Under the pieces are notes generated by a model that saw only the letters and a list, made by a program, of their open reading frames with translations, ran no database searches and had not been told where the DNA came from. A DNA stretch of 64,000 nucleotides from Thermodesulfobacteriota bacterium (GTDB taxonomy: Bacteria > Desulfobacterota_D > UBA1144 > Nemesobacterales > UBA2774): contig JBGSVA010000041.1 in NCBI GenBank assembly GCA_041753155.1, forward strand, positions 7,583-71,582, read 5' to 3'. The first letter of the stretch is position 1. Each line of letters opens with the position of its first letter. Shown one piece after another: positions 31,316-60,086 of this stretch. Position numbers and translations under genes: made by a program.

Positions 31316-31804
31316 TTAATCCACGTTACATCTCTGATGAGACTCGTAGTTGATACATTTATCCTGATCCTTCCCGCCGTCGATGCTGTCGGTGCCCATT
31401 CCTCCATCGAGGAAGTCCTCACCGTCGTTCCCTTCGAGGTAATCATCTCCGTCACCGCCGTATACGACATCGTCGCCCTTACCACCCCTCAGGTCGTCGT
31501 TCCCGGCGTCTCCGTATATTATATCCTCTCCCGCCCCGCCGGTAATCGTATCTGCGCCGTCGCCGCCGCAAATTACGTCGTCCCCGTCGAGACCCTTTAT
31601 CTGGTCGTTCCCTCCGAGCCCTACTATTACGTCAGGTCCGAGCGACCCGTTCAGGGTATCGTTCCCGTTCGTTCCCACGATTGTCGGCGTTTTACCCTGG
31701 CATGTAGGCGGAGGCTGCGGCGCCGGGCTAGGCGCGGCGTATGAATTTAAAGCAAAAAGCGACATTGCGACTAAAGCGGAAATGCTCAATAATATCCTTT
31801 CCAT
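31316..31804 (-). CDS. Small secreted calcium-binding protein with RTX-like GGxGxD nonapeptide repeats
   Basis: Signal peptide. Tandem GGNDQIKGLDGDDVICGGDGADTITGGAGED repeats. Confidence 0.7.
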   Translation of the reverse strand: MERILLSISALVAMSLFALNSYAAPSPAPQPPPTCQGKTPTIVGTNGNDTLNGSLGPDVIVGLGGNDQIKGLDGDDVICGGDGADTITGGAGEDIIYGDAGNDDLRGGKGDDVVYGGDGDDYLEGNDGEDFLDGGMGTDSIDGGKDQDKCINYESHQRCNVD

Positions 31805-34353: not shown

Positions 34354-34512
34354 CTAGACATGACCGTGAGAGCCGACATTCCATACGATCGATATACGCC
34401 GGACCTCACATATTAATAATTGGAATAATTTCTAATTTACACCATCGATCGGAGAAAAACCAGCCTGCCCGCTTTACTGTTATCGAGGAGCTTGTAAAGT
34501 TATACATTACAC

Positions 34513-35271
34513 ATGAAAAATGAGCTGGTCAGACTCCAGGAAACGCTCTATAACTCCAGGAACCCCACAAGACGCTGGCTCCACCGAACACGCAAGGACT
34601 GGATAGTTCACAAACTCAGACGATTTGCCGGCGAGGAGGGAAAAGGAAAAGTCCTCGAAGTCGGGATAGGCTCCGGAATTTACCTTCCTGTGCTAGCCGA
34701 GTTATTTGAGAATGTAGTTGCGATCGACATAGAGGATTCCTATATCGATAACGCAATGACCATGACAAAGGATTTGACCAACGTATCCATAATCAAGGAC
34801 GATATTACCGAAACCGGACTGGTTGAGAAGAGCTTCGATCTTGTCCTGTGCTCGGAAGTAATCGAGCATATATATGATTCGAACAAAGCGTTTGCTGGGA
34901 TGCAGAGGCTCCTCAAAAACGGATGTCCGCTGATATTGTCGACCCCGCAGCCGTGGAGTCCGCTGGAGCTTCTTTCCAGAATCGCATTCCTGCCGGGTGT
35001 TATAGATATTGTGAGATATATATACAAAGAGCCTATTCTGAAAACGGGGCATATCAATCTGATGACGGAAAAAGAGATTACAAGGCAGCTCGCAGAAAAC
35101 CGTTTTCGTATACGGGAACGTCATAAATCAGGCTTATATCTCCCGTTGATAGCCGAGTTTGCCGGGGAAACGGGCCTGAGACTCGAGAAATGGGTGGAAT
35201 CCCGTATCCGCAAACAACCCCTCGATTGGGCCCTATGGACGCAATACTACGTCGCCGAGCCTGAGTCCTGA
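34513..35271 (+). CDS. Class I SAM-dependent methyltransferase
   Basis: VLEVGIGSGIY...DIED (motifs I/II). Confidence 0.7.
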   Translation: MKNELVRLQETLYNSRNPTRRWLHRTRKDWIVHKLRRFAGEEGKGKVLEVGIGSGIYLPVLAELFENVVAIDIEDSYIDNAMTMTKDLTNVSIIKDDITETGLVEKSFDLVLCSEVIEHIYDSNKAFAGMQRLLKNGCPLILSTPQPWSPLELLSRIAFLPGVIDIVRYIYKEPILKTGHINLMTEKEITRQLAENRFRIRERHKSGLYLPLIAEFAGETGLRLEKWVESRIRKQPLDWALWTQYYVAEPES

Positions 35272-35286
35272 GATTCGTACCGGTTT

Positions 35287-36075
35287 CTAAAATTCAGATG
35301 ACGGAGAACGGCGGACGTATTTCCCAGACCTCAACCTGCTTCTTATCGCCGCTAAATCGGCGAGAGCCTTCACCGTCCCCTTTATAACGCTCACATTACT
35401 CTCCGGGTAATGCTTCCAGGTAATAGGCACCTCTTTCACCTCATATCCCAACTCTCTTGCAATCACCAGGAGCTCCACATCGAAAATCCAGCCCGGGATC
35501 GTTTGCAGGGGAAAAACGTTATCGGCTGAAGACCCCGTAAATATTTTGAAGCCCGCCTGAGTGTCCTTAAATGGAAGGCCGGCAAACAGCTTAACGAAGT
35601 ATATAAACACCTTCCCCATGCTCTCCCTGATCCACGGCTGGCGAGAGGTTATATTGGCGCCCTCTACGCCCCTCGAACCGATAATTATGTCGTATCCCTG
35701 GTCGAAATAGGGCATCATATGACGTATCTCTTCTATCGAGGTGGAATTGTCCGCGTCCATAAATAGCCGGCAGGTCCCCCGCGCCTTGAGCATCCCTTCC
35801 TTCACCGCCGTCCCCTTACCCCTGTTCTCGGGCAGGGTGATCAGCACGAGCTCCGGCATCGCGTCCATCAGGGACGAGACGGTCTCGGCGGTTTTATCCA
35901 TAGACCCGTCGTCAACGACTATAACTTCATGCTTGAATTTCATGTCCGCAAAAAAATGATGAACGGAAAGCAGGGTCGATTCGATGATACTCTCTTCGTT
36001 ATAAGCAGGGATGATCACCGAAAGGATTATTTCATCGTCTATGGATCGATCCCTCACATGGGCGGGAATTAGCAT
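35287..36075 (-). CDS. Glycosyltransferase family 2 (polyprenol-phosphate sugar transferase-like)
   Basis: LSVIIPAYNEE...VVDDGSMD...MDADNS motifs. Confidence 0.75.
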   Translation of the reverse strand: MLIPAHVRDRSIDDEIILSVIIPAYNEESIIESTLLSVHHFFADMKFKHEVIVVDDGSMDKTAETVSSLMDAMPELVLITLPENRGKGTAVKEGMLKARGTCRLFMDADNSTSIEEIRHMMPYFDQGYDIIIGSRGVEGANITSRQPWIRESMGKVFIYFVKLFAGLPFKDTQAGFKIFTGSSADNVFPLQTIPGWIFDVELLVIARELGYEVKEVPITWKHYPESNVSVIKGTVKALADLAAIRSRLRSGKYVRRSPSSEF

Positions 36076-36346: not shown

Positions 36347-37216
36347 TTGAAAGGAATAATCCTCGCCGGGGGTTCCGGCAAAAGACTCTTTCCCCTGACC
36401 CGTGCCGTAAGTAAGCAGCTGCTGCCGGTATTCGACAAGCCGATGATTTATTATCCGCTCTCGCTTCTGATGCTCGCAGGCATAAGGGAGGTACTGATAA
36501 TTTCGAGCCCTCACGATCTCCCGAGATTCAGGGAGCTCCTGCGGGACGGCTCTCATCTAGGAATGTCCTTTTCGTACGCTCCCCAGACAGAGCCCCGGGG
36601 TCTTGCCGAAGCGTTTCTTATAGGCAGGGATTTCGTGGGATGCGATGCCGTATGTCTCGTTCTGGGGGATAATTTGTTTTACGGCCATGGGCTGAGGGAC
36701 CTGCTCAAAAAGAGCGCGGGTCCAGGTCAGGGCGGGATCGTTTTCGGTTATCCCGTCAGAGACCCCGGCCGATACGGGGTTCTGGAATTCGGCGGGAACG
36801 GCAGCGTTATCGGGATTGAGGAAAAGCCGACGAAACCCAAGTCAAGGTATGCGGTCACGGGAATCTATTTTTACGATAATAATGTTTTGGAAATAGCGTC
36901 CGGGCTCTCCCCTTCTCACCGCGGAGAGCTTGAGATAACGGACATCAACCGGGAATATTTAACGAACGGGAAACTGACCGTAGAGCTTTTGGGGAGGGGG
37001 TTTTCGTGGCTCGATATGGGTACATACGAGTCCCTTCAGCAGGCATCCCAATACGTTCAGACCATTCAGGAGCGTCAGGGACTCAAGATAGCGTGTATCG
37101 AAGAGATAGCGTACAGGGAAGGATTCATAGACAGGGCGCGCCTGCGGGAGCTGGCCCTCGAGATGTCCGGGAACGAGTACGGGGCGTATCTGGACGAAAT
37201 ACTGGACCAGGGATAA
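36347..37216 (+). CDS. rfbA: Glucose-1-phosphate thymidylyltransferase (TTG start)
   Basis: [18 protein letters not shown] is the RmlA signature. Confidence 0.9.
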
Positions 37217-37221
37217 CGGGT

Positions 37222-37782
37222 ATGGCGATAAGCGTAATAGAGACATCCCTTCAGGGGGTATTCGTGATCGAATCCGACGTCCATACCGACGACAGGGGCT
37301 TCTTCAAAGAGATATACCGCTACGATAAATACCTGTCAGCGGGACTGGGCATGAAGTTCGTTCAGGATAATCACTGCCACTCGAAAAGGGGTGTTTTGAG
37401 GGGACTCCACTATCAGCTCAATTCACCGCAGGGGAAGCTCGTTATGGCCGTGACGGGCGAGGTGTTCGACGTAGCGGTGGATATAAGGAAGGGGTCTCCC
37501 GGCTACGGCAGATGGACAGGCGTATATCTATCCCCTTTAAATAACAGGCAGGTATATATTCCCGAAGGGTATGCTCACGGATATTGCGTACTGAGCGAGA
37601 GTGCGGACGTTATCTACAAATGCACCTCATTATTCGACCCCGGCGACGAGTACGGAATATTATGGTCGGACCCCGACATAAACATTGAATGGCCCGTAGT
37701 CAATCCGGTTCTTTCAGTGAGGGACGCGGGTAACCCGGCGCTCGGGGAGATAAGCGACGACGATCTGCCCGTGTATATGTAA
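37222..37782 (+). CDS. rfbC: dTDP-4-dehydrorhamnose 3,5-epimerase
   Basis: RmlC cupin motifs (DDRGFF ... RGLHYQ). The ORF-track N-extension is out of context. Confidence 0.85.
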
Positions 37783-37829
37783 ATTACCGGATAGTCGATA
37801 AAAGTATCGGGGGCTCGCGGTCACGTAGA

Positions 37830-38882
37830 ATGGAAAATTTGCTAGTAACAGGCGGCGCAGGTTTTATAGGCGTCAACTTCATCAGGTATCTTCTCACGGA
37901 GACGGGCTTCAGGGGACGCGTTATCAACGTGGACAAGCTTACCTATGCCGGGAACCCTGAAAGTCTTGACGGAATCGATAAGCGTTTTTCGGACAGGTAT
38001 GAGTTTATCAAAGCGGACATCTGTGATAGAGAGAAGCTTGCGCGTGTATTCGACGAGCACGATGTGGATTCGGTGTGCCATTTCGCCGCCGAATCCCATG
38101 TGGACAGGTCGATAGTCAGCGCCGAGGATTTTATCAAAACGAATATCCTCGGCACATACAACCTATTAGAGCTCGCCAGAGAGCGTACGGATCGCATTCG
38201 TCTATTCCATCATATAAGCACCGATGAAGTGTTCGGGGACCTGGACGCCGGGGGTTATTCCGCCGAGGACGCTCCCTACAGACCAAACAGTCCCTACTCG
38301 GCGTCTAAAGCCTCATCCAACCACCTTGCCAGAGCCTATTATAAAACTTACGGGCTTCCGGTGACGATCTCGAACTGCTCTAACAATTATGGACCTTATC
38401 AGTTCCCCGAAAAGCTTATCCCGCTTATGATACTGAACGCACTCGAGGGCAAGCCTCTTCCCATTTACGGAGACGGTATGAATGTGAGAGATTGGTTATA
38501 TGTGCACGACCACTGTGCAGCCGTAAAGACAATTATGGATAAGGAAAGCGGGGGGGAAACGTATAACATAGGCGGAGGGAATGAAATAACAAATATCCGG
38601 GTTGTCGAGATGATTTGCGATATGCTGGATGAGATTTTAGGCCGTCTTCCCGACGGGAAGCCCCGGAGAGACCTCATCACGCTCGTTCCCGACCGACCCG
38701 GTCACGACAGACGTTATGCAATTGAATGGAGGAAGATAAACTCCGAGCTGGGCTGGAGACCGACCGAGAGTTTTGAAAGCGGCCTCCGGAAGACCGTCGA
38801 CTGGTATCTCACCAATAAGGCCTGGGTTGACAGGGTCAGAAGCAGCGAATACAGAAAGTGGATTGATGCGCATTACGGATAA
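37830..38882 (+). CDS. rfbB: dTDP-glucose 4,6-dehydratase
   Basis: Rossmann fold TGGAGFIG. Catalytic YxxxK (YSASKAS). Confidence 0.9.
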
Positions 38883-39042: not shown

Positions 39043-40146
39043 CTAGCGGTAAAAACTTAAGCTTTCTAACTCCTGTCCCTCACCATCTACAATACGGAAA
39101 TTATATGTGCCCGGTTCCATGTTCATCCAGATATCCCTCGGAAAGCGCCATGATTTAGTTCCGCCGTCGCAAATCCTGACCGCTGCCGCAGGAATACCAA
39201 GATCATTATTCGAAATCTCGACCCATAACGGCAAGCTGCGTATCATTCCCATAGAACTGAACTCGAGAGTAGGAACGCCACACCACGGAAACGAACGCCC
39301 ATGAGCCCCCAAACCACAGTGAAATGCCAGCCGTCTCATCAGCGGGATTAGATATGAAATAAAAGTATCGAAGACTATCCCGTAGTAGCGTTTCCTGAAC
39401 ATACGGCCCGATTCCTCGAACCACTTTTTCGCCCTGGGCTCTTTTACCGCACTCCGGTTATATGCGTGCACAACTTGAGCGTCCGGCACATAGTAAGATT
39501 TCAGTCCGTTTTTCTCAAGCCTCCTGAGCCAGTCCGCCTCTTCATAATATAGCTTGTAGGCCTCGTCGAACGGCCCGACTCTGTTCCAGGTGTCCCTCCT
39601 CACAGCCAGGAGGGCGCCGCTTAAGGAGTAGCTCTCAAAGGCATCTCCGGCTTCCCAATGCCTCCTCGCGTGCACCCTCCATATACTCCTCACCCACCTG
39701 GCCCAGTCTTCCCCGAGCGCAGATGTCCTCCATATCAATTCGTTCCGCCTCTTAAGCTCCATGAGAGGCGGGAGCAGTATTATGCGTTCCGGGTCGAGAA
39801 AAAACTTCGGGCCTGCCGCGGGAGCACCTTTACAGAGCACCGACACGAGGGCGCCTAATGACCCAGGCATCACTTGAACGTCGGGGTTCATAAATATCAT
39901 GATATCAGCATTTGTGGCGCCGGCACCCAAATTGATACCCCCTGCATAGCCGAGGTTCACCCCCGGATCGAGGAGCCTTGCCGGGAGGGATCCGATAAGT
40001 CCCTTATCACGGTCGCCGCTCCCGTTATCTACTATTATTATCTCCCCTTCTATCCCGCTCGATCGCATATCGGAGCGGATTGCCTCTACAGCTTTCCGCA
40101 GCAGGTCGGGGGTGTGGTAATGAACGAGTATTAGAGCCACTTTCAT
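39043..40146 (-). CDS. Glycosyltransferase family 2
   Basis: ILVHYHTPDLL...IIVDNGSGD... motifs. Confidence 0.7.
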   Translation of the reverse strand: MKVALILVHYHTPDLLRKAVEAIRSDMRSSGIEGEIIIVDNGSGDRDKGLIGSLPARLLDPGVNLGYAGGINLGAGATNADIMIFMNPDVQVMPGSLGALVSVLCKGAPAAGPKFFLDPERIILLPPLMELKRRNELIWRTSALGEDWARWVRSIWRVHARRHWEAGDAFESYSLSGALLAVRRDTWNRVGPFDEAYKLYYEEADWLRRLEKNGLKSYYVPDAQVVHAYNRSAVKEPRAKKWFEESGRMFRKRYYGIVFDTFISYLIPLMRRLAFHCGLGAHGRSFPWCGVPTLEFSSMGMIRSLPLWVEISNNDLGIPAAAVRICDGGTKSWRFPRDIWMNMEPGTYNFRIVDGEGQELESLSFYR

Positions 40147-40213: not shown

Positions 40214-41218
40214 TCATGCCAGGAGACCCGTGAAAAACCGTAGGAGCGACTTTTCCGTTTCCTCTTCCGAGTACCTGAGAGCGGTCTTGTGGGCGTTCTC
40301 CCTTATCCGGTCGAGCTCGTACTGAATATTGTCGTAATTCTCGATAAGACTGAAGAGTTTATCTATGAGCGGGTAAACGTAGTTGTTCGGAAACACATAC
40401 GCATTCCGACCGTCCTCGAGATAATCCATACCGCCGTAAGCCTCGTAGCAAAGCGGGATGCATCCCGCGGCCATCGCTTCGGGGACAGTCACGTTAAACC
40501 CCTCTATCAAGTTTAGATTTACGAAAAAAGAAGACCCCTTCATAAGCTCCGAAACCCCCCGGTGAGTCATACCGTTTAGCTTCACAACATCCCAATTATC
40601 CCCGGACCTCCGTTCCCATTGTCCCGGAGACTTCGTTCCGACCGTCTCTGCTCTCTTTATCAGCAGCTTGAGGGCAATATCATAATCAACGCACCCTGCT
40701 CCGGCGTATGCGGGGTTTTGGAACAATAAAATTCTCCTTTGACGGTCTCCGGAACGGGCACCCTCATCATGGGCGAAGAAGTAAGGCGCAATAAACGGGG
40801 GGATAACTTCCGATTGAGCGCCGAAGTAAGTGTCAACGATCTTCTTTATATTGGGCATGGTGACGATTACATGGCCGTAACCGAGTTCGTCATAATTTAC
40901 GGCTTTTTCCAGCCTGTGGAGGATAAGGAACCCACCCTGAACAAACACAATCTTTTTACAGCCGGCGCTTCTCGGGAAGTCGTCGAGTACATTGACTTCG
41001 GGGACTACAAGAAAATCATTTTCTCTGATTTTGAAAGAACTGTCATTTAAATATGAAACAGGTACATCCGACTCGAACCATCGGTAGCGGTAGGGCCTTT
41101 TATGATGCAGGACAGCCGCATCGATTCCGTTTCGATTCAGTAATTTCACGTGGCCGTACAACATGCCGATGCCCCAGCTCGGCTTATCGTATTCAGGGGC
41201 AAGATAATAAATCGTCAC
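40214..41218 (-). CDS. Glycosyltransferase family 4 (GT-B, retaining)
   Basis: The C-terminal FFVNLNLIEGFNVTVPEAMAAGCIPL matches the GT4 EX7E region. Confidence 0.65.
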   Translation of the reverse strand: MTIYYLAPEYDKPSWGIGMLYGHVKLLNRNGIDAAVLHHKRPYRYRWFESDVPVSYLNDSSFKIRENDFLVVPEVNVLDDFPRSAGCKKIVFVQGGFLILHRLEKAVNYDELGYGHVIVTMPNIKKIVDTYFGAQSEVIPPFIAPYFFAHDEGARSGDRQRRILLFQNPAYAGAGCVDYDIALKLLIKRAETVGTKSPGQWERRSGDNWDVVKLNGMTHRGVSELMKGSSFFVNLNLIEGFNVTVPEAMAAGCIPLCYEAYGGMDYLEDGRNAYVFPNNYVYPLIDKLFSLIENYDNIQYELDRIRENAHKTALRYSEEETEKSLLRFFTGLLA

Positions 41219-41249: not shown

Positions 41250-42446
41250 TCAACGGTCCGAACCGGATACGCCCTGAGCAATGTGTCTCAGTAAAGAAAG
41301 AGACTTGTAAATCAAAGAGACCGGTAATTTTGACACATGCCAGGAATCGGGAGCGGTTATTGCGTCTCTGCATCCTCGGCATATAAAATCCGCAGGAGCC
41401 TCTTCGATCCCGTATATCCAGCGCCTCATCTTTGCAAATTCCGGCCCGGTAAGGACCTCGTCCACTGTTTGTCTGTTAAGATCGCCTACTATGTAGGCAT
41501 TATTGTAGTCCTGACAGCAGAGGAAACACTCCCCCTTCGGGTTGATATGCAGGTGCTGTAGGGGGCGGGAACCTAATAACGAACAGCCCCGCAGCTTTTT
41601 ATGCGGGTTATCTGTCTTCAACCCGAGACTGAGATAACCTGCCCGGTTAGTCAAAATAGAATATTTAACATTGAAATATGATTCCGAGAAGTGTTCCGCT
41701 ATCTCTCTGAAGCTGCGGATATGGTCTTCATCCCCCATGCCCAGCACCGCTATATCCATATATTCAGCAATTTTCTTGTCTTTAATATAATCGAGGTTCC
41801 TGATAACCGTACCGACGTGGTCACCTCCGCGGTCTTTCTTATATCGTTCGCGATCCATTGTCGAAAGATTTACGGAAAGATAACCCAGCCCGCCCATGTC
41901 AATGATCTCGTCCGACCTCGATGGCGTAAGACCGGTCGCGTTCGTGTTCACCGCAGGACGGAAGCCGTGTTTCTTAATAAGTCTTATCTGATCCACAAAC
42001 CGCTTGTCGGCTGTAGGCTCGTTGTAGCTGATCATGAAAACGAGCTCCACGGTATTGCGGTAAACCGACAGCTGCCTCAATATATCTTCATAAAACTCGA
42101 TGGGCATAAAATATTCTTCTCTCGGATTTATCGAAACGGGACAGAAATAACACGCCTGATTGCATACCGTATTCGCTTCGATCGATACGAATTTAAGATA
42201 AAAGCGTTTTGACAATTCCTCATTGCTTATATGCGGGATTATCCACCCCTCACTCTCAAGGAGATGTTTTAAATCCGGGGACAAAGAATCCACAGAACGT
42301 TTTCCCGATGCCATAGCCCTCAATTCCCCGTATCCCAGGTCATTAGGCAGGATAGTACGGTTTGTCAAAGGGTTATAGATACGGTCCCGATGTAAATTCA
42401 GATAAGGTTCCGCAATCGACCTCTTACTCGCCTCTTCTCCATCCAT
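41250..42446 (-). CDS. Radical SAM enzyme with a C-terminal SPASM/twitch Cys cluster and a ~95-aa N-terminal extension
   Basis: CNQACYFC (CX3CX2C). The C-terminus has CSLLGS...ECFLCC...CRGC. GGAGGAG RBS. Confidence 0.75.
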   Translation of the reverse strand: MDGEEASKRSIAEPYLNLHRDRIYNPLTNRTILPNDLGYGELRAMASGKRSVDSLSPDLKHLLESEGWIIPHISNEELSKRFYLKFVSIEANTVCNQACYFCPVSINPREEYFMPIEFYEDILRQLSVYRNTVELVFMISYNEPTADKRFVDQIRLIKKHGFRPAVNTNATGLTPSRSDEIIDMGGLGYLSVNLSTMDRERYKKDRGGDHVGTVIRNLDYIKDKKIAEYMDIAVLGMGDEDHIRSFREIAEHFSESYFNVKYSILTNRAGYLSLGLKTDNPHKKLRGCSLLGSRPLQHLHINPKGECFLCCQDYNNAYIVGDLNRQTVDEVLTGPEFAKMRRWIYGIEEAPADFICRGCRDAITAPDSWHVSKLPVSLIYKSLSLLRHIAQGVSGSDR

Positions 42447-42562
42447 TAACTTATTAATCTCTCCTCCATATATATAGTTTTTACATAATGCCGTTCACTT
42501 TAATTACGACATCACCTACTTTATCCACACCACTGGTATACGCGAAAGTTAAAGCCTCATTT

Positions 42563-43384
42563 TTATCTAAACAGTGCATCCCTCACCCTAAACACGATAG
42601 GCGGTACGAATAATGCGACTGCATCTTTTAATTTTTGCGCCCTTTCGGCTTTCCTCAGCGTCTGCCCGGGTTTCAGTTTAAATAAGGTAGTATGATCTTC
42701 GAGCCCTATTTTTATCTCCTCCTCCGGTCTGCCGTTCGTGTAATAGTAGAGCGCGAGGGATTTCCTGCTTCCGCCGTTGGGGCAGTTTACAGGAGTAGGG
42801 TTGCCGTGGTACGAAAAATCCGTTGTAGAAAACACGACTGCCGTATTGTATGCGGGTACAACCATTCTGTGACACACTTTCATTTCCCTGTCCCAGAGTT
42901 CGAGCTGTCCGCCGTTTTCGTCCGTCCACCCTTTATTCAGATAAATGAGAAGATTGAGCCTCCTGTCGAGTCTCATCTTAGGGTGCCTGTTAAAATCTGC
43001 GTGTATGTTGAGAAACCCTCCGTGCTTCAGCTCGTGCAGCCCGCCGCCGAAAAAGTGAGGGTCGGGGACGAGGCCGTCTATGCCCGTCATCCCTTCCAGG
43101 AAATCTATAAACGGTTTTGAATTCAGGAAATGGAGGAACAATGTTGTGCGTGGGCCGAAATGGTCTTCGCCGATACTTGCAAGCTTGACTTCATGCTCAT
43201 TATCGTACTCCAGCTTCATCCGAGACCTGCTCAAATCGGGAAACTCATCAAGCACTGCGTCGAGTATCTCTTCATTAAAAAGACCCTCTATTACGATGTG
43301 GGGAAAAGGAGGATTGTTTTGGTATTCATCCGCCTTTTCCTTTCCAAGTCCGCCGAGATCGGTCTTTAACCAGTGCATATACAC
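42563..43384 (-). CDS. 2-oxoglutarate/Fe(II)-dependent oxygenase (prolyl-hydroxylase-like fold)
   Basis: HxD...H facial triad candidates (NIHADFNRH ... SYHGN). Confidence 0.55.
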   Translation of the reverse strand: MYMHWLKTDLGGLGKEKADEYQNNPPFPHIVIEGLFNEEILDAVLDEFPDLSRSRMKLEYDNEHEVKLASIGEDHFGPRTTLFLHFLNSKPFIDFLEGMTGIDGLVPDPHFFGGGLHELKHGGFLNIHADFNRHPKMRLDRRLNLLIYLNKGWTDENGGQLELWDREMKVCHRMVVPAYNTAVVFSTTDFSYHGNPTPVNCPNGGSRKSLALYYYTNGRPEEEIKIGLEDHTTLFKLKPGQTLRKAERAQKLKDAVALFVPPIVFRVRDALFR

Positions 43385-43740
43385 TATTTATTTAACCTCC
43401 TGTGCCGCTTCGATTTATCATCGAAGTATTTCATCCGGATTTAGTTATTTCGTCACCGGAGCTGAAATTAATGAACTCCACTTATTTTTTTCGAAAATGC
43501 TCAACAGGATTACATTGGAGAACAAAATCACAGTATCCATCCTCTGCGGGGCTTTTGTGGTTATTTTTAAGGCCTCTCCAATATATTTTGCTAGACCAGT
43601 ATACCTTGAAAACACACTTACAATAACATGCACATACATTATTGAAGCATTATACATATATTAATGTATTCGCGCAATTATAATCTCCTACTGTGCCGGA
43701 TATATAACATGAGAATTGTCTGAGGATATATAAGCTTTTC

Positions 43741-43935
43741 TCAGCCGAGGAGGCTCGAAAAAAAACTCCTCATTTCTTGAGAGAATTGCTTTCTTGAATA
43801 ACACCTTAGGGCAATGGACTGCATTTGTTCTATCTCCATAGCGAGCTCATCGGCGCTTTTATTATAAACTTCAATAATGCTTCCGGGAATATCCCTGCGC
43901 TTGATATATGTGTACTCACATCTTTGACCTATCAT
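43741..43935 (-). CDS. Candidate small protein (64 aa) translationally coupled to the upstream sulfotransferase
   Basis: ATGA stop/start overlap with the sulfotransferase. GGAG sits 8 nt upstream of the ATG. No homology is recognised. Confidence 0.3.
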   Translation of the reverse strand: MIGQRCEYTYIKRRDIPGSIIEVYNKSADELAMEIEQMQSIALRCYSRKQFSQEMRSFFSSLLG

Positions 43936-44813
43936 TCAGAAAACTCCGGCCAAAGGGAAGTATCAATTTCCGGAAACATCTTTATCATCGCCTGGACGTC
44001 CGGTGAATAATATCTTGCAAGACGTTCTCTTTCCTCTTTCGTGATATCCGGAATTTTATGCACTATACGATTGACGGGTCTCTCGGGGTTTGCGGGCTTA
44101 TACCCGTCATCAATTCCCAGAAATCTGTACGTTCGCGAAATCTCCGTATAAATATCCAGCTTGCACTTTTCATACTGCAATATCAGAATTTGATCGCGTT
44201 CGAAAAGGGATAAGAGCCTTGAAAGAGAAAACGAGAGGGAACTTTGCGTTATTGAATCAGGAAATACCCAAAACAATTCTACCATATGATTGAGGTCGGT
44301 TCCGAGATCAAAACGCTCGGAATATACAGATGTGAATTGATTTAAATGTGAGATAAACCTATCGATAGGGTTTCTGAGAACTATGAGAATTTTAGTCTCG
44401 GGAGCGGCTCCGGCCAAATAATCCAGGGCTAACGGGTACCAGAGATAACTCGGGGACCATTCTCCGCTTATACAGTTGTCGGGGGAGGCAAAGGCCTGAC
44501 GGTAAACGGAAATATCTTCCTTACTTATCCCATGAGTGCCGAAATGGTAGAAATAAGCGAGTTCCTTTTCTTTCAGTCTGTTCTCCACCACTTGTGGATG
44601 TTCCAGGAGCAACGAATACCACCAGGTAGTGCCAGCCTTAGGACTGGCGACACCTACGAAATCAGGGCCTTTGATCTTCCAGTTATCCGGTATCCGACAG
44701 AGATCCGACGTCCTGAAAGGGCGCGTCATAGGGGTATAAGCAGGGGGTCCGCCGGATTTTCCGGTCCTCGATGTTTTATTCCAAACGCTCTTTAATAAAT
44801 TCTTCATGACCAA
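43932..44813 (-). CDS. Sulfotransferase (PAPS-dependent, Sulfotransfer_3-like)
   Basis: 5'-PSB motif PKAGTTW and 3'-PB motif RNPIDR. Confidence 0.75.
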   Translation of the reverse strand: MVMKNLLKSVWNKTSRTGKSGGPPAYTPMTRPFRTSDLCRIPDNWKIKGPDFVGVASPKAGTTWWYSLLLEHPQVVENRLKEKELAYFYHFGTHGISKEDISVYRQAFASPDNCISGEWSPSYLWYPLALDYLAGAAPETKILIVLRNPIDRFISHLNQFTSVYSERFDLGTDLNHMVELFWVFPDSITQSSLSFSLSRLLSLFERDQILILQYEKCKLDIYTEISRTYRFLGIDDGYKPANPERPVNRIVHKIPDITKEERERLARYYSPDVQAMIKMFPEIDTSLWPEFSE

Positions 44814-44955: not shown

Positions 44956-45801
44956 TTAGCCATATCCCTTTCTTCTGCTGACCGTTCTTTTAATATATCC
45001 AGTGCAGTGCTCAGAACTTATGGTCCTTTTGTCACCCAGACTCCAGTCGTTTGCATAACCGTATCTCTCCATATATTCGGCAAACAACGGTTTGAAAAAA
45101 TCAACATCCTCCGGGAGGAACCAGTTCCTCCAGTCGCCATACCCCCTTGTCCTCGGGACATGGCTGTTTTCCTCGCCGACTTCAGCCTCGCCGGTCAGCC
45201 TGAACCCGAGGTACTGTTCAAGTCCCTGAAGGTCTCCGTCCACAAAATTCTCGTACCTGATCCTGCAATGCTCCCCCATCCTGCCCTCGAATCCATAGAT
45301 CCAATTTTGTTGACTTTTCATCCAATCGGCAACCTTACCTAGCGACTCGCCGGGTATTAAATTCAGAACCTGTTGTAATAATGAAACGAATGAGATACTT
45401 TCCGGGTTCTCTTCCTTTTTTTTGAACAGGGTTAATACAAAATCGAGATTGTCGTCATTTTCATATATAGACGGCGACTGTTGTATTAAGAACAGCAAGC
45501 CGCTTACGACCCAGTCCCTCGGGTCTCTGACTATGTAGATTTTTTTGTCGAATCCCATGAACGATGTGTAATTCGCGACCTCCCGCCCGTCCACGAATCC
45601 GAGAATAACCTTGGCTAATTCGGCCGGATAGGATTTAAGCGGTTCAGGAATGTAATTCACAGGTTCATTAAGAAGCCTGGCTCCGGCAGGGAGAGAGTTA
45701 TAAATTTTGTAGCATAATGCCGTAGTGCCTGATTTGTATTGGCCGAATATAACAATTCTTATCTTATCTGAAAAAGGTACAGTGAGTATCGTCCCAGCCA
45801 T
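44956..45801 (-). CDS. Sulfotransferase family protein (second paralogue)
   Basis: GQYKSGTTAL P-loop-like 5'-PSB motif. IVRDPRD 3'-PB motif. Confidence 0.65.
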   Translation of the reverse strand: MAGTILTVPFSDKIRIVIFGQYKSGTTALCYKIYNSLPAGARLLNEPVNYIPEPLKSYPAELAKVILGFVDGREVANYTSFMGFDKKIYIVRDPRDWVVSGLLFLIQQSPSIYENDDNLDFVLTLFKKKEENPESISFVSLLQQVLNLIPGESLGKVADWMKSQQNWIYGFEGRMGEHCRIRYENFVDGDLQGLEQYLGFRLTGEAEVGEENSHVPRTRGYGDWRNWFLPEDVDFFKPLFAEYMERYGYANDWSLGDKRTISSEHCTGYIKRTVSRRKGYG

Positions 45802-45870: not shown

Positions 45871-47874
45871 TCACGTAATCGTTCTTCGCCTAAAAAAATT
45901 CAATATCCTGAGAGGAACGATTTTTCTTACGGTGCTGTAGATTGTCCAGATAAAATAATTATTAATCAATGAGTTGCCGGTGGCCGGTTTACGTACTCCC
46001 GCATGTCTTTCAGCCAGGGCTCTCCTCAAATATCGGTTCTCCTCGTAAACCTCATCGATCCGCTTGATAAACCATTTTTCATAATCCCCGGTCTTGAAAT
46101 AGTCGCTGTATTTATCGTATATCTTAAAGCGCCACTCGTTGTAATTATAATCGCGCTCGGCGAATACCCTGTATTCCGCGGTGATACCGGGAAGTCTCTG
46201 TATATAGGTATGAGTCGCTATTCTGAGCCACAGGTCCCAGTCCTCATATATCTCGAGCCCTTCATCCGGATAATCAATCTCTTCGAGCAAAGCCTTCGCA
46301 AACATGAGGGTCATGTTTGGGATGTAGTTAAAGACATGCAGCTGATCGAGATCATGATCCACTCCTCTGAAAGGCTTCTTCTCACCTTTAAGTATGAACT
46401 CGCTGCCGTGCCACTCGTAACCGGCTATTTCGCAATCGCTGTATGCGGCTTTCTCGCCCGTCGTTTCAAGATATCTTGCCAGCTTCTCCACATGACCGAC
46501 ATGAAACAGGTCATCGTCGTCAAGAAAATTGATATATTTCCCCCCGGCAGCTCTAATCCCCTCGTTCCCGGCTGCTGACCGTCCCCTGGGTTCGTCGAAT
46601 TTGATATACCTTACGGGAATATATTTCTGGAATTCCTCTACGACCCCCGTAACATCCTCCCCTCCGTCATTTACAATGACGGCCTCGATGTTCGGATAAG
46701 TCTGCATAACGATGCTCGATAGAGTATCCCTAAGCAAAAGCGGCCTGTCTTTCGTACGCACTATTACAGAGACGAGAGGCGTATCTTCCTTAAACCGGTT
46801 AAAAGCGGACAAAAACTGTTCCCGTGAGAATTTCTCCACGTGATTATCAATCAGCTCTCCGCTCTTCATCAGAAAGAAACCCTCGGCGTAAGCGGCGGAG
46901 CTAAGCGTAAGGGAGCGGAAACGGTTAAGGGAGAGCGCTATGTCGGAGTAGGGAACATTTTCCAGCTGACTCTTGTACGCTTCACAGGCTTTCCGCTTGC
47001 GCTCGACCGCGGATGTGATATCGACAAGCGCGTTCACCCTGATCGCCGTGTTGATTTCACAGAATGCAATTACGCAGTCAGCACATGCTTTTTGCGCGGA
47101 ACGACAGACTATTTCGGCCGCTGCACGGTGGTCGGGATGGAATTCAAACGGCGACGGGACATAAATAAGGTCCGGTCTGTAGTTCTCCAGGAGCACGGAA
47201 AGACGGTCTATATTCCGGTTGTCAGGTTCGAGGCCCCTATCGGGGTTCCTCCAGAACTCGAGATCCGAAACTCCCAGTATTTCGCATGCCCTCCTGGCCT
47301 CGGATTCTCTCAATTCGACATAGTCCTCTTTCCTGTGCTTTCCGGAAAAATCGGCCTTCGACCCGTCGGTGAGGAAAACAACTTTTACAGGGTCACCGCT
47401 TTTCCGATGATGTATGATACTCCCGCCGCAGCCGAAGCATTCGTCATCAGGGTGGGGAGCGATCACCAGAACTTTGTTGCCTGTAAGCTCAGCCGCTTCA
47501 TACGGTATGATCTTCTCCTCGTGGAGGGTATTAAGAACGACAGGGCTGCCCGCCAATTCTTGCCCCGTCTCCCCGAAAATAAACTGTAATTCATGCCTCA
47601 CCCCGTCGAGATACCCGGAAGATATCCGGTATATGAACCCGTGATATCCCCTCCCATACCCTTTTTCCTTGAGGTCCCATCTGTAATAAGAAGGTGTGAA
47701 CCCGTCGACAGGATTCCCGCCTTCCTTCACGATAACACGTAAAGGCTCGTCCGGGCAGGACTTATCAAGCGCCCATCCCTTCACAATGGAATCGTCGTGA
47801 TATTCGATCTCGCCGATGTAATCGGATTCGGCCGCAGGCATGGACTTTCCAAATCTTTCCTTGATATATTTCAT
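45871..47874 (-). CDS. Three-domain protein: N-terminal unknown region, PIG-L/LmbE deacetylase and GT2 glycosyltransferase
   Basis: LVIAPHPDDECFGCGGS (PIG-L). VSVIVRTKDRP...VIVNDGGED...FLDDDD (GT2). Confidence 0.75.
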   Translation of the reverse strand: MKYIKERFGKSMPAAESDYIGEIEYHDDSIVKGWALDKSCPDEPLRVIVKEGGNPVDGFTPSYYRWDLKEKGYGRGYHGFIYRISSGYLDGVRHELQFIFGETGQELAGSPVVLNTLHEEKIIPYEAAELTGNKVLVIAPHPDDECFGCGGSIIHHRKSGDPVKVVFLTDGSKADFSGKHRKEDYVELRESEARRACEILGVSDLEFWRNPDRGLEPDNRNIDRLSVLLENYRPDLIYVPSPFEFHPDHRAAAEIVCRSAQKACADCVIAFCEINTAIRVNALVDITSAVERKRKACEAYKSQLENVPYSDIALSLNRFRSLTLSSAAYAEGFFLMKSGELIDNHVEKFSREQFLSAFNRFKEDTPLVSVIVRTKDRPLLLRDTLSSIVMQTYPNIEAVIVNDGGEDVTGVVEEFQKYIPVRYIKFDEPRGRSAAGNEGIRAAGGKYINFLDDDDLFHVGHVEKLARYLETTGEKAAYSDCEIAGYEWHGSEFILKGEKKPFRGVDHDLDQLHVFNYIPNMTLMFAKALLEEIDYPDEGLEIYEDWDLWLRIATHTYIQRLPGITAEYRVFAERDYNYNEWRFKIYDKYSDYFKTGDYEKWFIKRIDEVYEENRYLRRALAERHAGVRKPATGNSLINNYFIWTIYSTVRKIVPLRILNFFRRRTIT

Positions 47875-47898: not shown

Positions 47899-48942
47899 TC
47901 AGAACATATCGGTATCGCCCATTGTAAAATAAAGTCTCCTCGATAATTCATATGAATCCACATTTGAGTCCAAAGGTGTTGTTGTTATAAACAGCGCATA
48001 TGGATTCCCGCCTTCGCTCATATCTCTTGATTTCAGCACCTCTTTTGCTTCCTCATCATTACATAGCCACATTTCCACTTTTCTTGCCCCCAAAAGAACA
48101 GCCAGATTCCAGATCCGCCGCTCTAGTTCCGTAATAGTCGATGGATCCTTTCCATCCCATATCAAATCCACCCACTTAAGAATTCTGTCATCAAGGCTAA
48201 GCACAGCAAAACCATGCGGAACGCCATTGTCTACAACTATTAAATAATAGTATTTTTTTAGCGGATGGCTCAAATACCGCCGATGTATATATTCCATGTC
48301 TCTCACAGCCGAAACGGGGTAACGGACCGAAGCCCTCGACCACAACTCACCGATATAACTTAAATCTACATAGCTGCGGGAGGTAAGAAAACTCCATATT
48401 ATTCGACTCATTACGAGCCCGCGCACCCTATGAAATAAATTCAACCGTTTGCTGAGATATACGATAGGTACGCATTCCGTATAATTCATCATCAATCTGC
48501 CCAATTTCAGATGCCTCTCTCCCAGGCAGCCGTATAATAATGCAATGTTATCCTTGGCTCCGAATTGTGCGCGGAAAGCATCAAACGTTTTTATATATAG
48601 TTTTTTCCTGACTACATATTCCCTTTGAAGAGAATAGCAATCCACGGCCTGAGCGCAGTTCAGAATCTTTCCATTCATCTGTATTCTGGAAAGGAGGGTG
48701 GAGAAATTGACCAGAACCTCGTTATTTTCGTCAACAGCCAGCATTATGCGAGAGCCGGCGTCGCTGTCACGGCCGAATTTCCAGTACCATTCCTCTATAG
48801 TGCGATTCGCACCGAAGACCTCGTTGAAACCCCGGTTGATTGAGATTTCATCCCCTGTCTCATACGGCCGTATTGTCTGGCTATCCATTTGCATCAAGTG
48901 AGCCGACCGAGAATTTCTTAATCCTGTCCATAAGTGCTTCAC
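47899..48942 (-). CDS. Hypothetical protein, GNAT-fold/FemAB-like acyltransferase candidate
   Basis: It sits in the operon context. Weak resemblance to Acetyltransf_6-type proteins. No firm motif. Confidence 0.35.
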   Translation of the reverse strand: MKHLWTGLRNSRSAHLMQMDSQTIRPYETGDEISINRGFNEVFGANRTIEEWYWKFGRDSDAGSRIMLAVDENNEVLVNFSTLLSRIQMNGKILNCAQAVDCYSLQREYVVRKKLYIKTFDAFRAQFGAKDNIALLYGCLGERHLKLGRLMMNYTECVPIVYLSKRLNLFHRVRGLVMSRIIWSFLTSRSYVDLSYIGELWSRASVRYPVSAVRDMEYIHRRYLSHPLKKYYYLIVVDNGVPHGFAVLSLDDRILKWVDLIWDGKDPSTITELERRIWNLAVLLGARKVEMWLCNDEEAKEVLKSRDMSEGGNPYALFITTTPLDSNVDSYELSRRLYFTMGDTDMF

Positions 48943-48945
48943 GGA

Positions 48946-50085
48946 TCAAGTTTTTATAATCACATAAAAACCCTTGGTTTCCAAGCTGTCCATATCTGTC
49001 TCGAATAGACTCGATAGCTTTCTGAACCGCGCCGGGAGCTCGGTCTTCTGGGGGATTATTTTGTAAGAACTTATCCCGGACCTTTCTACCCAGTCTTCCA
49101 ATGTTCTTCTCGTGAAAAAGCGGAAATGCGTATAGCACAAAAGACCGATCGGGACATAATCCCATCTCCCTGCCAAGAGGTCTTCCACGACGGAGTAATG
49201 TCCGACGTTCGGCACGGATAGAACTATACGTCCCCCTGGTCTCAGTACCGATTTCATTTTTAAAAGAAAGTCTTCCGGGTAGTTCAGGTGCTCGAACAGC
49301 TCCGTAGCAAGGACGACGTCGTACTTCTCATCTATGTCCAGCTCCTGAATATCCCCGCAGATAACACGCGAAATGTGACTCCGCGCATCCGACGCGATGT
49401 CGGAGTTGAGTTCAACCCCCGTGACGCGGCATCCAAGCTTATTCTGTAGGAATTCGCCGGTAAGCCCACGCCCGCAACCTATTTCAAGAATCTCTTCGGC
49501 GCCTTCCGGAATATAGGGTAGTATGTCCTCCCTAATCTCGCCGTAATAGTCGATAAACTGATGGAATACGCCCGCATGGGTCGTCCGGTTTCCGAGCCTG
49601 AGGTTCTTGAAAAGCTCTTTGTCCGTCAATACCTCTTCCACGGATGTTCTATTCAATACTTCACGGAATGAATCTGCAGAGAAAAGGGATATCGGGAGGT
49701 GCGAGTCGTTCAATTCAAAGGGCTTATGGAATTCGTTGAATATGCGTTTTTCTATTAGCTCGTAACCGCGAATCGTATAGATAGGCGATTCACCCGTTAC
49801 TTTAAATTTAGATATAGAATTAGGTAATACGGCAGAGACCCGTGTATTCAGCGCATTTGTCATATGAATTAAGGTTTCCGCAGTGAAAAACAAATTCTCC
49901 TTACCCAGAACCAGAACGTAATCGGCTGCCGGCAGTAGAGGCTCTCCGCTGCCTTCACGCCAAACGAGTGTTTCGACCTCGAAGGCTTTTCTTGCCCGAT
50001 TAACGCAATATGAGAAGAGATACCTGAATTCAGGGGATTCGGCGTTTTCAGAGGTCAGATGTTTAAGAACCACCAACTTGGACAT
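48946..50085 (-). CDS. Two-domain protein with a C-terminal class I SAM-dependent methyltransferase
   Basis: ILEIGCGRGLTG ... LRPGGRIVLSVPN. Confidence 0.7.
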   Translation of the reverse strand: MSKLVVLKHLTSENAESPEFRYLFSYCVNRARKAFEVETLVWREGSGEPLLPAADYVLVLGKENLFFTAETLIHMTNALNTRVSAVLPNSISKFKVTGESPIYTIRGYELIEKRIFNEFHKPFELNDSHLPISLFSADSFREVLNRTSVEEVLTDKELFKNLRLGNRTTHAGVFHQFIDYYGEIREDILPYIPEGAEEILEIGCGRGLTGEFLQNKLGCRVTGVELNSDIASDARSHISRVICGDIQELDIDEKYDVVLATELFEHLNYPEDFLLKMKSVLRPGGRIVLSVPNVGHYSVVEDLLAGRWDYVPIGLLCYTHFRFFTRRTLEDWVERSGISSYKIIPQKTELPARFRKLSSLFETDMDSLETKGFYVIIKT

Positions 50086-50185: not shown

Positions 50186-51073
50186 TTAAGGCTTGGGAAC
50201 GGCTTTCCGGCCGTGTCTTATAGAAATATATTCCCCGAGGGCTTCCTCCCATTGCCTGAGCCTTCTTATTCCTGCGCTTTCCAGTTTTGCATTATCGAGG
50301 ACGGAATATCGGGGCCTTTCGGCTCTTGCCCTGTATTGTTCCGATGTGACCGGGACTACATCGGGGCTCACACCCGCCGCATCGAAGATAGCCGTCCCAA
50401 ACCGATACCACGAGCATTCCCCGGAATTCGTGATGTGGTAGGTACCGTAGTCTTCTTCTTCAAGCAGTTCCGCAATCTTTAAGGCAAGGTCCCGCGTGAA
50501 TGTGGGAGACATCACCTGATCGTCGACTATCTTTATCCGTCCCCCATTCTCAGCGAGTCTTATCATGGTCTCTACAAAATTATGTCCGCGTTTTGCCGGA
50601 AGCCCCAGGCCGAAAAGCCCCGAAGCACGGATGATGAAATGCCGGTCGCACTTACCCATTACCAATCTCTCGCCATCGAGCTTTGAAATACCATAGGCGT
50701 TCAGGGGATGAGGCTCGTCTGTCTCCGTATACGGCTTTCCCTTTTTTCCGTCGAACACATAGTCGGAGCTGATATAAACACAAACCGCACCTGCCCCGGA
50801 GCAAGCGTCCGCGACATGACCCGCGCCCTCCGCATTTAGCAGCATCGCATACGCAGAATCAATTTCACAGCCGTCTACATCTGTATGCCCCGCCGCGTTG
50901 ATTACTATGTCGGGCGTGTGATGACCGATAGTGCTAAATACCGAGTCCCTGTCAGTCAGGTCGAGTTCAAGCCTTCCGGCAGAAATAACACCATAGCTCT
51001 CTTTTTCACGGAACACGTGTACGAGGTCAGCGCCTAGCTGTCCTGTCGGACCGATTATCAATACCTTTTTCAT
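50186..51073 (-). CDS. rfbD: dTDP-4-dehydrorhamnose reductase
   Basis: MKKVLIIGPTGQLG plus an RmlD-like sequence. YxxxK is present. Confidence 0.85.
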   Translation of the reverse strand: MKKVLIIGPTGQLGADLVHVFREKESYGVISAGRLELDLTDRDSVFSTIGHHTPDIVINAAGHTDVDGCEIDSAYAMLLNAEGAGHVADACSGAGAVCVYISSDYVFDGKKGKPYTETDEPHPLNAYGISKLDGERLVMGKCDRHFIIRASGLFGLGLPAKRGHNFVETMIRLAENGGRIKIVDDQVMSPTFTRDLALKIAELLEEEDYGTYHITNSGECSWYRFGTAIFDAAGVSPDVVPVTSEQYRARAERPRYSVLDNAKLESAGIRRLRQWEEALGEYISIRHGRKAVPKP

Positions 51074-60068: not shown

Positions 60069-60086
60069 CTTGTGTTTAATAATGTT

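Follow-up and report, generated by a model that had tools for sequence, protein, structure and literature searches.

A radical SAM gene within a glycan operon

We analysed a 64,000-nucleotide stretch of a Thermodesulfobacteriota bacterium genome (assembly GCA_041753155.1, contig JBGSVA010000041.1; hereafter the window). Here a gene on the minus strand (41250..42446) encodes a 398-aa radical S-adenosylmethionine (SAM) enzyme, rSAM, with a twitch-type C-terminus of SPASM profile; both domains (PF04055 and PF13186) scored above the Pfam gathering cutoffs. Upstream of it, at a distance of 116 bp and with the same orientation, lies a gene for a 2-oxoglutarate (2OG)-Fe(II) oxygenase. Both belong to a run of glycan genes that extends on the minus strand from 51073 down to 39043, in the order RmlD, methyltransferase, GNAT-like protein, PIG-L/GT2 fusion, two sulfotransferases, 2OG oxygenase, rSAM, GT4 and GT2 (GT, glycosyltransferase, with its family number). 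An earlier reading of this DNA, the original prediction, had placed the rSAM and 2OG genes within a glycan operon, and this was borne out.

Motifs and class of the rSAM protein

The Radical_SAM match covers residues 93–241 (66.1 bits for a gathering cutoff of 29.5) and the SPASM match residues 294–359 (40 bits for a cutoff of 21.5). Across 33 aligned members of the family (53–78% identity), the CX3CX2C motif for the SAM-cleaving [4Fe-4S] cluster, anticipated near residue 95 and found as C95, C99 and C102 (42141..42164, minus strand), was invariant. The twitch/SPASM region (residues 288–359; 41370..41585, minus strand) carries six C-terminal cysteines, C288, C307, C310, C311, C356 and C359. Four of them (C288, C310, C356 and C359) were invariant in the same alignment, while C307 and C311 were kept in about 90% of the members. 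The signature of a full SPASM domain, CX9-15GX4C...CX2CX5CX3C...C, was not found in rSAM, which misses the CX2CX5CX3C block and has these six cysteines only. Since only four C-terminal cysteines are invariant, rSAM appears twitch-like with one auxiliary cluster, and the cysteine complement, as read from the sequence, agrees with a twitch domain of one cluster but not with a full seven-cysteine SPASM. The multi-cysteine SPASM/twitch-like C-terminus expected at the outset therefore held as regards the profile and the twitch type, but not as a full SPASM.

No NCBIfam model passed its cutoff for rSAM (best, 61 bits for a cutoff of 380) and none of the models of anSME, the anaerobic sulfatase-maturating enzymes, was matched at E ≤ 0.01. 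The original prediction had named two outcomes that would speak against it, a canonical anSME with no sulfatase encoded nearby or elsewhere in the genome, or a cysteine cluster that is no SPASM by profile; we found no anSME match and a SPASM by profile.

A search of all PDB sequences with the rSAM family profile gave BtrN, the 2-deoxy-scyllo-inosamine dehydrogenase of butirosin synthesis (PDB 4M7T/4M7S), as top match (E 1e-12); the alignment extended over the core as well as the C-terminal stretch 'C(C)xDY...G(D/N)...C..C'. The peptide epimerase YydG/EpeE came second (E 1e-4), and beyond these two the search gave nothing, anSME included. BtrN, the archetypal carbohydrate-acting twitch radical SAM enzyme and the top solved relative of rSAM by profile, likewise has one four-cysteine auxiliary-cluster site in the same arrangement. 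In the hidden Markov model alignment, C310 fell on the cysteine of BtrN 'PCFEDF' and C356/C359 on BtrN 'CKNC'; the counterpart of C288 was assigned from spacing and is thus putative. We take the corresponding BtrN ligands to be C188 and C232/C235. The two proteins also differ: identity is about 17%, BtrN is about 250 aa long and has no N-terminal domain, and the window family possesses two extra near-invariant cysteines, C307 and C311.

The AlphaFold2 model of full-length rSAM had a mean pLDDT (predicted local distance difference test) of 83.6. In a Foldseek search it matched SuiB, BtrN, TigE, anSME, DesII, MoaA and EpeE at similar E-values, SuiB being first. BtrN was covered best, with a template modelling (TM) score of 0.64–0.71 normalised to BtrN length, and anSME reached 0.46–0.48. 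Because E-values were alike for BtrN, anSME, SuiB and MoaA, the fold alone does not discriminate between them. By the criteria tested we classify rSAM as a BtrN-like twitch radical SAM enzyme, though it is no BtrN orthologue. Its family is real and well conserved, and has neither a curated model nor a description in the searchable literature.

The N-terminal domain of rSAM

The original prediction had pointed to an N-terminal extension of about 95 aa. The extension is real: residues ~9–86 (42189..42422, minus strand) form a conserved domain with β-β-β-α-α-β topology, modelled confidently (pLDDT > 90 within the rSAM model and 85.7 when modelled separately). Conserved residues include P14, L16, P26, T31, G38, Y39, L63, G67 and W68, and the family alignment displays the motifs (E/N)P(Y/F)L and YNPLTxRT...GY..L...GW. 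Searches of the PDB and Pfam at E ≤ 10 returned nothing for this domain except Pfam 2C_adapt just below threshold (21.4 bits for a cutoff of 22), a match that recurred in the N-terminal domains of 7 of 16 family members; a viral-protein fold search prompted by this lead found nothing. In particular, no sequence match to PqqD or to the RiPP recognition element (RRE; RiPP, ribosomally synthesised and post-translationally modified peptide) was obtained in Pfam or the PDB.

Foldseek gave no significant match for the isolated domain (all E > 2, probability ≤ 0.28). RRE domains dominated this non-significant list (TM 0.38–0.55, E 2–5), with the lasso-peptide B1 protein 6jx3 (TM 0.52), TbiB1 (0.50), ThcOx (0.55), MibB and TigE. 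The modelled domain may thus be RRE-like in topology, a likeness that is unproven. Comparison with the RRE fold, as originally proposed, accordingly brought an RRE-like topology to the top of the list but no significant match (TM ~0.5, E ~2).

A recurring module around the rSAM gene

The core partners of rSAM in the window all lie on the minus strand. A WbbL-like GT2 of 367 aa (39043..40146; Pfam), more tightly linked to the rSAM gene than any other neighbour, belongs to a family with 942 matches that carry rhamnosyltransferase names in JGI records through automated naming. The GT4 glycosyltransferase (334 aa; 40214..41218; Pfam) lies between the two. Further upstream, a PIG-L de-N-acetylase is fused to a GT2 (667 aa; 45871..47874; Pfam and NCBIfam). 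It has diacetylchitobiose and BshB deacetylases as PDB relatives, and also occurs in loci L001, L003, L004, L007, L060, L063, L064, L067 and L098. The GNAT-like protein (347 aa; 47899..48942) has no Pfam match of its own; it was assigned from the weak Acetyltransf_9 matches of its orthologues and is homologous to a 306-aa gene product of Acidobacteria. Next comes a SAM-dependent methyltransferase (379 aa; 48946..50085; Pfam) with an N-terminal extension of about 180 aa and orthologues in L001, L007 and L096. Searches of the PDB with the 367-aa GT2 and the GNAT-like protein were uninformative.

Neighbours were counted in 40 rSAM loci that are flanked by 8 kb or more on either side. A GT2 of about 360 aa was present in 38 of them, usually as the adjacent gene, Wzt in 36, directly upstream, and a GT4 in 33 (it is also found in L096 and L098). 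Less frequent were a PKD protein (31/40), a 432-aa secreted protein (29/40), a small GT2 (27/40), a sulfatase-fold protein (PF00884; 23/40), YfhO (19/40) and the 2OG oxygenase (15/40). As these loci come mostly from one class, Thermoanaerobaculia, some counts reflect shared ancestry and the raw fractions overstate independence; rearrangement across phyla is the stronger evidence for a module. The set of rSAM, GT4, GT2, GNAT-like and PIG-L/GT2 genes was found in shuffled orders in Thermodesulfobacteriota (L001, L007), Obscuribacterales (L060, L063), Multivoradales (L064) and Acidobacteriota. A reciprocal test started from relatives of the 367-aa GT2 led back to rSAM with GT4, methyltransferase, GNAT-like and AMP-binding/PP-binding proteins in Anaerolineae (L096), and to rSAM with PIG-L/GT2, GNAT-like and GT4 genes in L098. 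The module is thus shared by at least five phyla, and its core set occurs, with the gene order shuffled, in Thermodesulfobacteriota, Acidobacteriota, Obscuribacterales, Multivoradales and Anaerolineae. Gene-neighbourhood conservation, which had been suggested as a check, is therefore apparent around rSAM across phyla.

Locus L097 (8026–11549) is syntenic with L001 (1194–14797). There the GT2 stands alone between APS (adenosine 5′-phosphosulfate) kinase and aldehyde dehydrogenase genes, and eight L001 genes are missing: methyltransferase, GNAT-like, PIG-L/GT2, methyltransferase, GT4, 2OG, rSAM and GT4. Since the whole module is absent, it behaves as an insertable or deletable cassette on which the GT2 is not strictly dependent.

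Two further features accompany related loci. Acyl-activating (AMP-binding/PP-binding) and acyl carrier protein (ACP) genes are found with rSAM in L096 (12256–14388), where the GNAT-like gene is also present, and in L092 (5571–8789), which hints at N-acylation of the amino sugar with an activated acid and not at simple re-acetylation. The Wzt-rSAM genes of Acidobacterial and related loci are preceded by genes for an FG-GAP protein, for an unannotated secreted protein of ~430–480 aa (one to three paralogues in tandem) and for a PKD-repeat protein of 1,600–1,800 aa, in 29–31 of the 40 loci (for example L003 834–7324, L009 5596–9900, L067 1423–8600 and L089 656–7663). These proteins, none of which is encoded in the window, may represent glycoprotein targets, or else conserved neighbours without any relation to the module.

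Spread of the family, fusions and distant relatives

A word-index search gave 1,735 matches to rSAM, and 236 representatives were retained at E ≤ 1e-30 in an exhaustive search. Relatives occurred in at least 277 species-level genomes, nearly all of them metagenome-assembled genomes (MAGs) and all with generic source names, mostly from Thermoanaerobaculia, Holophagales and other Acidobacteriota, with a few from Thermodesulfobacteriota, Obscuribacterales and Multivoradales. The closely related locus L005, also from a Thermodesulfobacteriota MAG, is 92% identical to the window, and in one case an orthologue of the window GT2 was labelled Candidatus Dadabacteria.

Fusions were observed in several proteins. 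A methyltransferase precedes rSAM in P0243, P0244 and P0251 (three contigs carry P0251) and stands ahead of the N-terminal domain; these methyltransferase domains are distant from the 379-aa methyltransferase of the window (28% identity over 108 aa). In L088 such a fusion is accompanied by GT4, GNAT-like, sulfatase-fold and PMT-like GT-C proteins. One protein, P0287, is a GT4-GT2-rSAM fusion with intact motifs, in which the GT domains take the place of the N-terminal domain. A GT2-rSAM fusion of 629 aa (P0255, a metagenome protein) was discounted, as it has lost CX3CX2C while retaining the C-terminal cysteine signature; it may be a pseudo-enzyme or an assembly artefact.

No NCBIfam cutoff was passed by ten distant relatives either. 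One distant member (184 bits; L090, 3–10076) is situated between non-ribosomal peptide synthetase modules, with a 4-bp overlap between its gene and that of a stand-alone PIG-L deacetylase, which points to coupling of rSAM and deacetylase in a natural-product setting as well. A Bacillus cereus plasmid relative (L092, 5571–8789) belongs to a cluster with ACP, histidine phosphatase, adenylating enzymes and an NTP-transferase. Plasmid pBHWA1 of Brachyspira hyodysenteriae (L093, 748–13506) bears seven rSAM/SPASM genes among rfbF, rfbC, GT and rhamnan-synthesis genes; the rfb block has been linked to virulence and the function of its rSAM genes left open (PMC4267127). It is a published example of rSAM genes within a rhamnose and glycan cluster (PMC4267127), but the pBHWA1 proteins form a tandem array of seven, have no N-terminal domain (they match from residue 87) and are not orthologues (21% identity, E 3e-10).

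A plasmid cassette of two Streptomyces and one Nocardia (L091 8845–15232, L094 8734–15210 and L095 8722–15187) contains rSAM/SPASM, rSAM-like, creatininase-family, arylsulfotransferase, GT-A, methyltransferase and AAA ATPase genes. A divergent XRE regulator comes first, and the surroundings carry mobile and defence-like genes; a defence-system reading was dropped as no PADLOC system was matched. The cassette rSAM shares 27% identity with that of the window (E 1e-41) and keeps the C-terminal signature. Distant yet clearly related, the cassette could serve as a genetically tractable entry point to the family, or it could be a separate system for small-molecule or nucleic-acid modification.

The adjacent 2OG oxygenase

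The upstream neighbour of rSAM (42563..43384, minus strand) encodes a 273-aa protein matching 2OG-FeII_Oxy_3 (PF13640) with 64 bits for a Pfam cutoff of 27. The HxD...H iron triad and the 2OG-binding arginine with its RxS context (H128-x-D130, H193 and R207-x-S209) were invariant in 21 relatives, and the enzyme is predicted to be catalytically intact. The prolyl-hydroxylase fold first attributed to it received a marginal answer, prolyl 4-hydroxylase matches in the PDB having E-values of 0.01–0.06; the assignment as an intact 2OG oxygenase upstream of rSAM stood.

The original prediction had also proposed that the two enzymes work as a pair. We reject an obligate pair: only 15 of the 40 rSAM loci have the oxygenase, and the oxygenase family is distributed independently. 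It comprises at least 7,800 matches at about 50% identity, from Bacteroidota, cyanobacteria, Thermodesulfobacteriota, Acidobacteriota and one eukaryotic transcript. In Bacteroidota and cyanobacterial loci (L085–L087) the oxygenase is part of Wzx/Wzy-type clusters devoid of rSAM, usually next to a GT4 and sometimes among sulfotransferases, and in those of Acidobacteria its gene and the end of the GT4 gene overlap. We view the oxygenase as an optional addition to glycan clusters, in which it would serve as an independent tailoring enzyme. We found no characterised member of its family in the literature, and this family may pose a more general open question than rSAM itself.

A probable carbohydrate substrate for rSAM

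The original prediction had left two readings, an unusual sugar modification in the glycan pathway or the modification of a peptide or protein encoded nearby. Carbohydrate is favoured by our results, and the peptide alternative received no positive support. We consider it probable that rSAM is a carbohydrate-acting, BtrN-like twitch enzyme which modifies a sugar as part of a conserved pathway for a cell-surface glycan. A glycan sugar, and not a peptide, is the most likely target because the family travels with GTs and amino-sugar-modifying genes in several phyla. BtrN as closest solved relative, the cross-phylum glycan module and the fusions to methyltransferases and GT4-GT2 argue in the same direction, and distant relatives are also coupled to sugar enzymes (PIG-L, arylsulfotransferase with GT, and rfb/rhamnan genes). 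The BtrN pathway presumably combines a GT4 (BtrM) with a PIG-L-family deacetylase (BtrD), family types that are also present in the window module. The contexts differ nevertheless: the window has a cell-surface glycan setting, with rhamnose genes and, in related loci, Wzt, in contrast to the aminocyclitol antibiotic cluster of BtrN, and its module includes neither an inosose synthase nor an aminotransferase.

Such an enzyme would cleave SAM reductively, and the resulting 5′-deoxyadenosyl radical would take a hydrogen from a sugar C–H bond, either in a nucleotide-sugar or in a lipid-linked glycan residue. The most plausible target would be a hexosamine that is de-N-acetylated and re-acylated by the PIG-L/GNAT part of the module. 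The auxiliary [4Fe-4S] cluster could then accept an electron to give a keto-sugar, in a BtrN-type two-electron oxidation, or the radical could be quenched to give an epimer. Some members lack C307 and some lack C311, which weakens the case for a cysteine acting as hydrogen-atom donor and hence for an epimerase. The N-terminal domain probably docks rSAM to a partner (GT or methyltransferase) or to a carrier-bound substrate. The adjacent 2OG oxygenase, which usually accompanies GT4, would perform independent O2-dependent tailoring of the same glycan and would not be an obligate partner of rSAM. As read from its genes, the module to which rSAM is obligately tied adds a hexosamine, de-N-acetylates it, probably re-acylates it, and adds rhamnose.

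Several observations weigh against this assignment. All close relatives of rSAM come from uncultivated MAGs, in a sample of loci dominated by one class, and no family member has a demonstrated substrate or reaction. The GT2 partner can occur without rSAM, as in L097. The best, albeit non-significant, fold matches of the N-terminal domain are peptide-binding RRE domains; SuiB, which bears an RRE, heads the Foldseek list of the full-length model, and Foldseek E-values do not separate BtrN from anSME, SuiB or MoaA. The near-invariance of C307 and C311 has no explanation. Finally, no Wzm/Wzt, flippase or initiating transferase gene was detected in the 64-kb window. Without Wzm/Wzt, flippase and initiating transferase genes in the window, the final product, whether polymer, glycolipid or glycoprotein, is not fixed.

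To our knowledge, the substrates of almost every characterised SPASM/twitch radical SAM enzyme are peptides, cofactors or antibiotic intermediates, and a literature search found no characterised one in polysaccharide clusters or in cell-surface polysaccharide assembly. The rSAM family belongs to a recurring glycan module of hardly cultivated phyla that are dominant in soil and sediment. Knowledge of its reaction would add an oxygen-independent type of sugar tailoring to glycobiology and would aid the prediction of surface glycans in Acidobacteriota and Thermodesulfobacteriota.

Alternative readings

The RRE-like topology invites two further explanations, both of which we regard as unlikely. 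According to the first, an RRE-type recognition domain was recruited into glycan biosynthesis and rSAM performs a radical transformation unprecedented in the assembly of polysaccharides, such as C–C coupling of the tunicamine kind or epimerisation, by a radical route, of an amino sugar bound to a polymer. In one version the domain would bind a non-peptide ligand or a partner GT; in the other the glycan would be built on, or next to, a recognised peptide or protein. If this explanation were true, a conserved surface glycan would be common to Acidobacteriota, Thermodesulfobacteriota, Chloroflexota and relatives.

According to the second, which seems improbable to us, rSAM is a peptide or protein maturase whose RRE-like domain binds a peptide that is crosslinked, epimerised or oxidised, the GTs decorating the same peptide or protein. 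SuiB, CteB and TigE share with rSAM the succession of N-terminal β/α domain, radical SAM core and C-terminal Fe-S domain, and SuiB was the best Foldseek match of the full-length model. These enzymes, however, have a full SPASM that holds two auxiliary clusters, and the gene of a precursor peptide lies next to theirs, whereas rSAM, compared with the RRE maturases, has four invariant cysteines, no precursor ORF (open reading frame), no PqqD sequence match and an all-glycan neighbourhood. RRE domains did rank first among the fold matches of the N-terminal domain, but none of these was significant and no PqqD/RRE match was obtained by sequence; moreover, in P0287 GT domains replace this domain altogether. 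The second rank of the peptide epimerase YydG/EpeE in the PDB sequence search is also compatible with a peptide substrate, as is the faint likeness of the neighbouring 2OG protein to YhhC, an oxygenase of cyclophane peptides, although the score of 44 bits is far under the NCBIfam cutoff of 150. Similarly, about 30 of the 40 Acidobacterial loci encode large secreted PKD, FG-GAP and 432-aa proteins upstream, which might be modified, but the PKD and 432-aa proteins are missing from the window.

A precursor peptide was the subject of a separate search. All-against-all comparison of 506 small-ORF candidates from 77 loci gave no conserved small-ORF family near rSAM but only gene fragments, the largest cluster being a C-terminal fragment of the 432-aa protein. 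Gaps beside the rSAM gene measured 8–37 bp in mapped loci, so that no room is left there for a precursor ORF. In the window, the sole candidate, a 64-aa ORF (43741–43935), lies in the 548-bp gap between sulfotransferase and oxygenase genes; it does not qualify as a conserved gene since L005, at 92% identity, does not share the stretch that contains it (43525–43917). Nothing positive thus supports a peptide substrate.

We judge it rather more doubtful that rSAM is a TunB-like enzyme forming C–C bonds by radical chemistry. Together with a methyltransferase-like partner it would build a branched or higher-carbon amino sugar which, as in the synthesis of tunicamycin, would next undergo glycosylation, de-N-acetylation and N-acylation. 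The tun cluster comprises the radical SAM enzyme TunB (337 aa), the methyltransferase TunM, the acetyltransferase TunC (333 aa), the GT TunD, the N-deacetylase TunE and the ABC-2 proteins TunI/J (PMC6965331, PMC5365060), and the core module contains these family types. Set side by side by family types alone, it is the known cluster closest to the window module in gene-family composition: TunC is similar in length to the GNAT-like gene product of rSAM modules (306–347 aa), and de-N-acetylation followed by re-N-acylation suits the PIG-L and GNAT-like pair. Methyltransferase-rSAM fusions occur in the family, the Anaerolineae locus L096 adds an AMP-binding/PP-binding acyl-activating protein beside the GNAT-like gene, and the B. 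cereus relative is found with ACP, histidine phosphatase and adenylating enzymes. However, matching of family types is weak evidence because all these families are common. The fused methyltransferase domains are far from the 379-aa methyltransferase, and no TunA/TunF-type pair forming an exo-glycal and no TunH are evident in the window. Tun is further distinguished as the source of a secreted nucleoside antibiotic of actinomycetes, while modules of the window type, without TunA, TunF and TunH, have additional GT2s, GT-Cs (YfhO/PMT/TMEM260-like) and rhamnose genes.

An anSME-like maturase that activates a pathway enzyme, such as the sulfatase-fold protein (PF00884) of related loci (23 of 40, and L088), is very unlikely and was rejected as largely refuted: anSME structures gave good matches in Foldseek and share with rSAM the radical SAM core, the SPASM-profile C-terminus and a similar length, but no anSME model or PDB profile match was obtained, rSAM has its own N-terminal domain and four to six C-terminal cysteines, too few for two auxiliary clusters, the Acidobacterial sulfatase-fold protein reads T-L-P-S-V where a formylglycine sulfatase needs C/S-x-P-x-R, and the window and the Thermodesulfobacteriota loci are without any sulfatase-fold gene.

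Other features of the window

Between the 2OG oxygenase and the core genes, the run contains a variable part. The PF00685 sulfotransferase of 293 aa (43932..44813, minus strand; Pfam) is a variable cassette gene, present in L007 and replaced in L001 by a methyltransferase and a GT4. A second sulfotransferase-like protein of 281 aa (44956..45801, minus strand) matched PF00685 weakly (24 bits for a cutoff of 22) and had no counterpart in the other loci compared. The AT-rich stretch of about 390 bp between the sulfotransferase and 2OG genes (43525–43917, GC content ~0.40), without counterpart in L005, is perhaps the scar of an insertion or a region with an internal promoter. Over the larger segment of 40.8–46.4 kb, GC content is 0.43–0.48 and lies below that of the flanks.

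The run begins with RmlD, dTDP-4-dehydrorhamnose reductase (50186..51073, minus strand; RmlD_sub_bind, 300 bits). The remaining genes for dTDP-L-rhamnose synthesis, rmlA, rmlC and rmlB, were identified as ORFs on the plus strand (36347..38882), and their orthologues flank the module in L001 and L007 at 58–71% identity. The ORF listed for RmlC (37006–37782) starts at a GTG and overlaps rmlA by about 210 bp; the ATG at 37225 is the more likely start, as homology to dTDP-sugar isomerases begins near there.

Beyond the rhamnose genes lies an extracytoplasmic glycosylation sub-module (32119..36075), all three genes of which were assigned by Pfam: a YfhO GT-C (32119..34353, minus strand; 49% identical to the Acidobacterial copy), a methyltransferase (34513..35271, plus strand) and a small GtrB/CsbB-like GT2 (35287..36075, minus strand). 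Adjoining the YfhO gene, a 162-aa protein (31316–31804) consists almost entirely of RTX calcium-binding nonapeptide repeats. No polymerase gene and no sulfatase-fold gene accompany the glycan genes of the window. No Rfam families or tRNAs were found in it, and a promoter/terminator scan did not rise above chance. At its other side, the window holds a complete and ordinary-looking cellulose synthase operon (53745–62357) with BcsA carrying PilZ, BcsB, a GH8 (glycoside hydrolase family 8) endoglucanase and BcsC.

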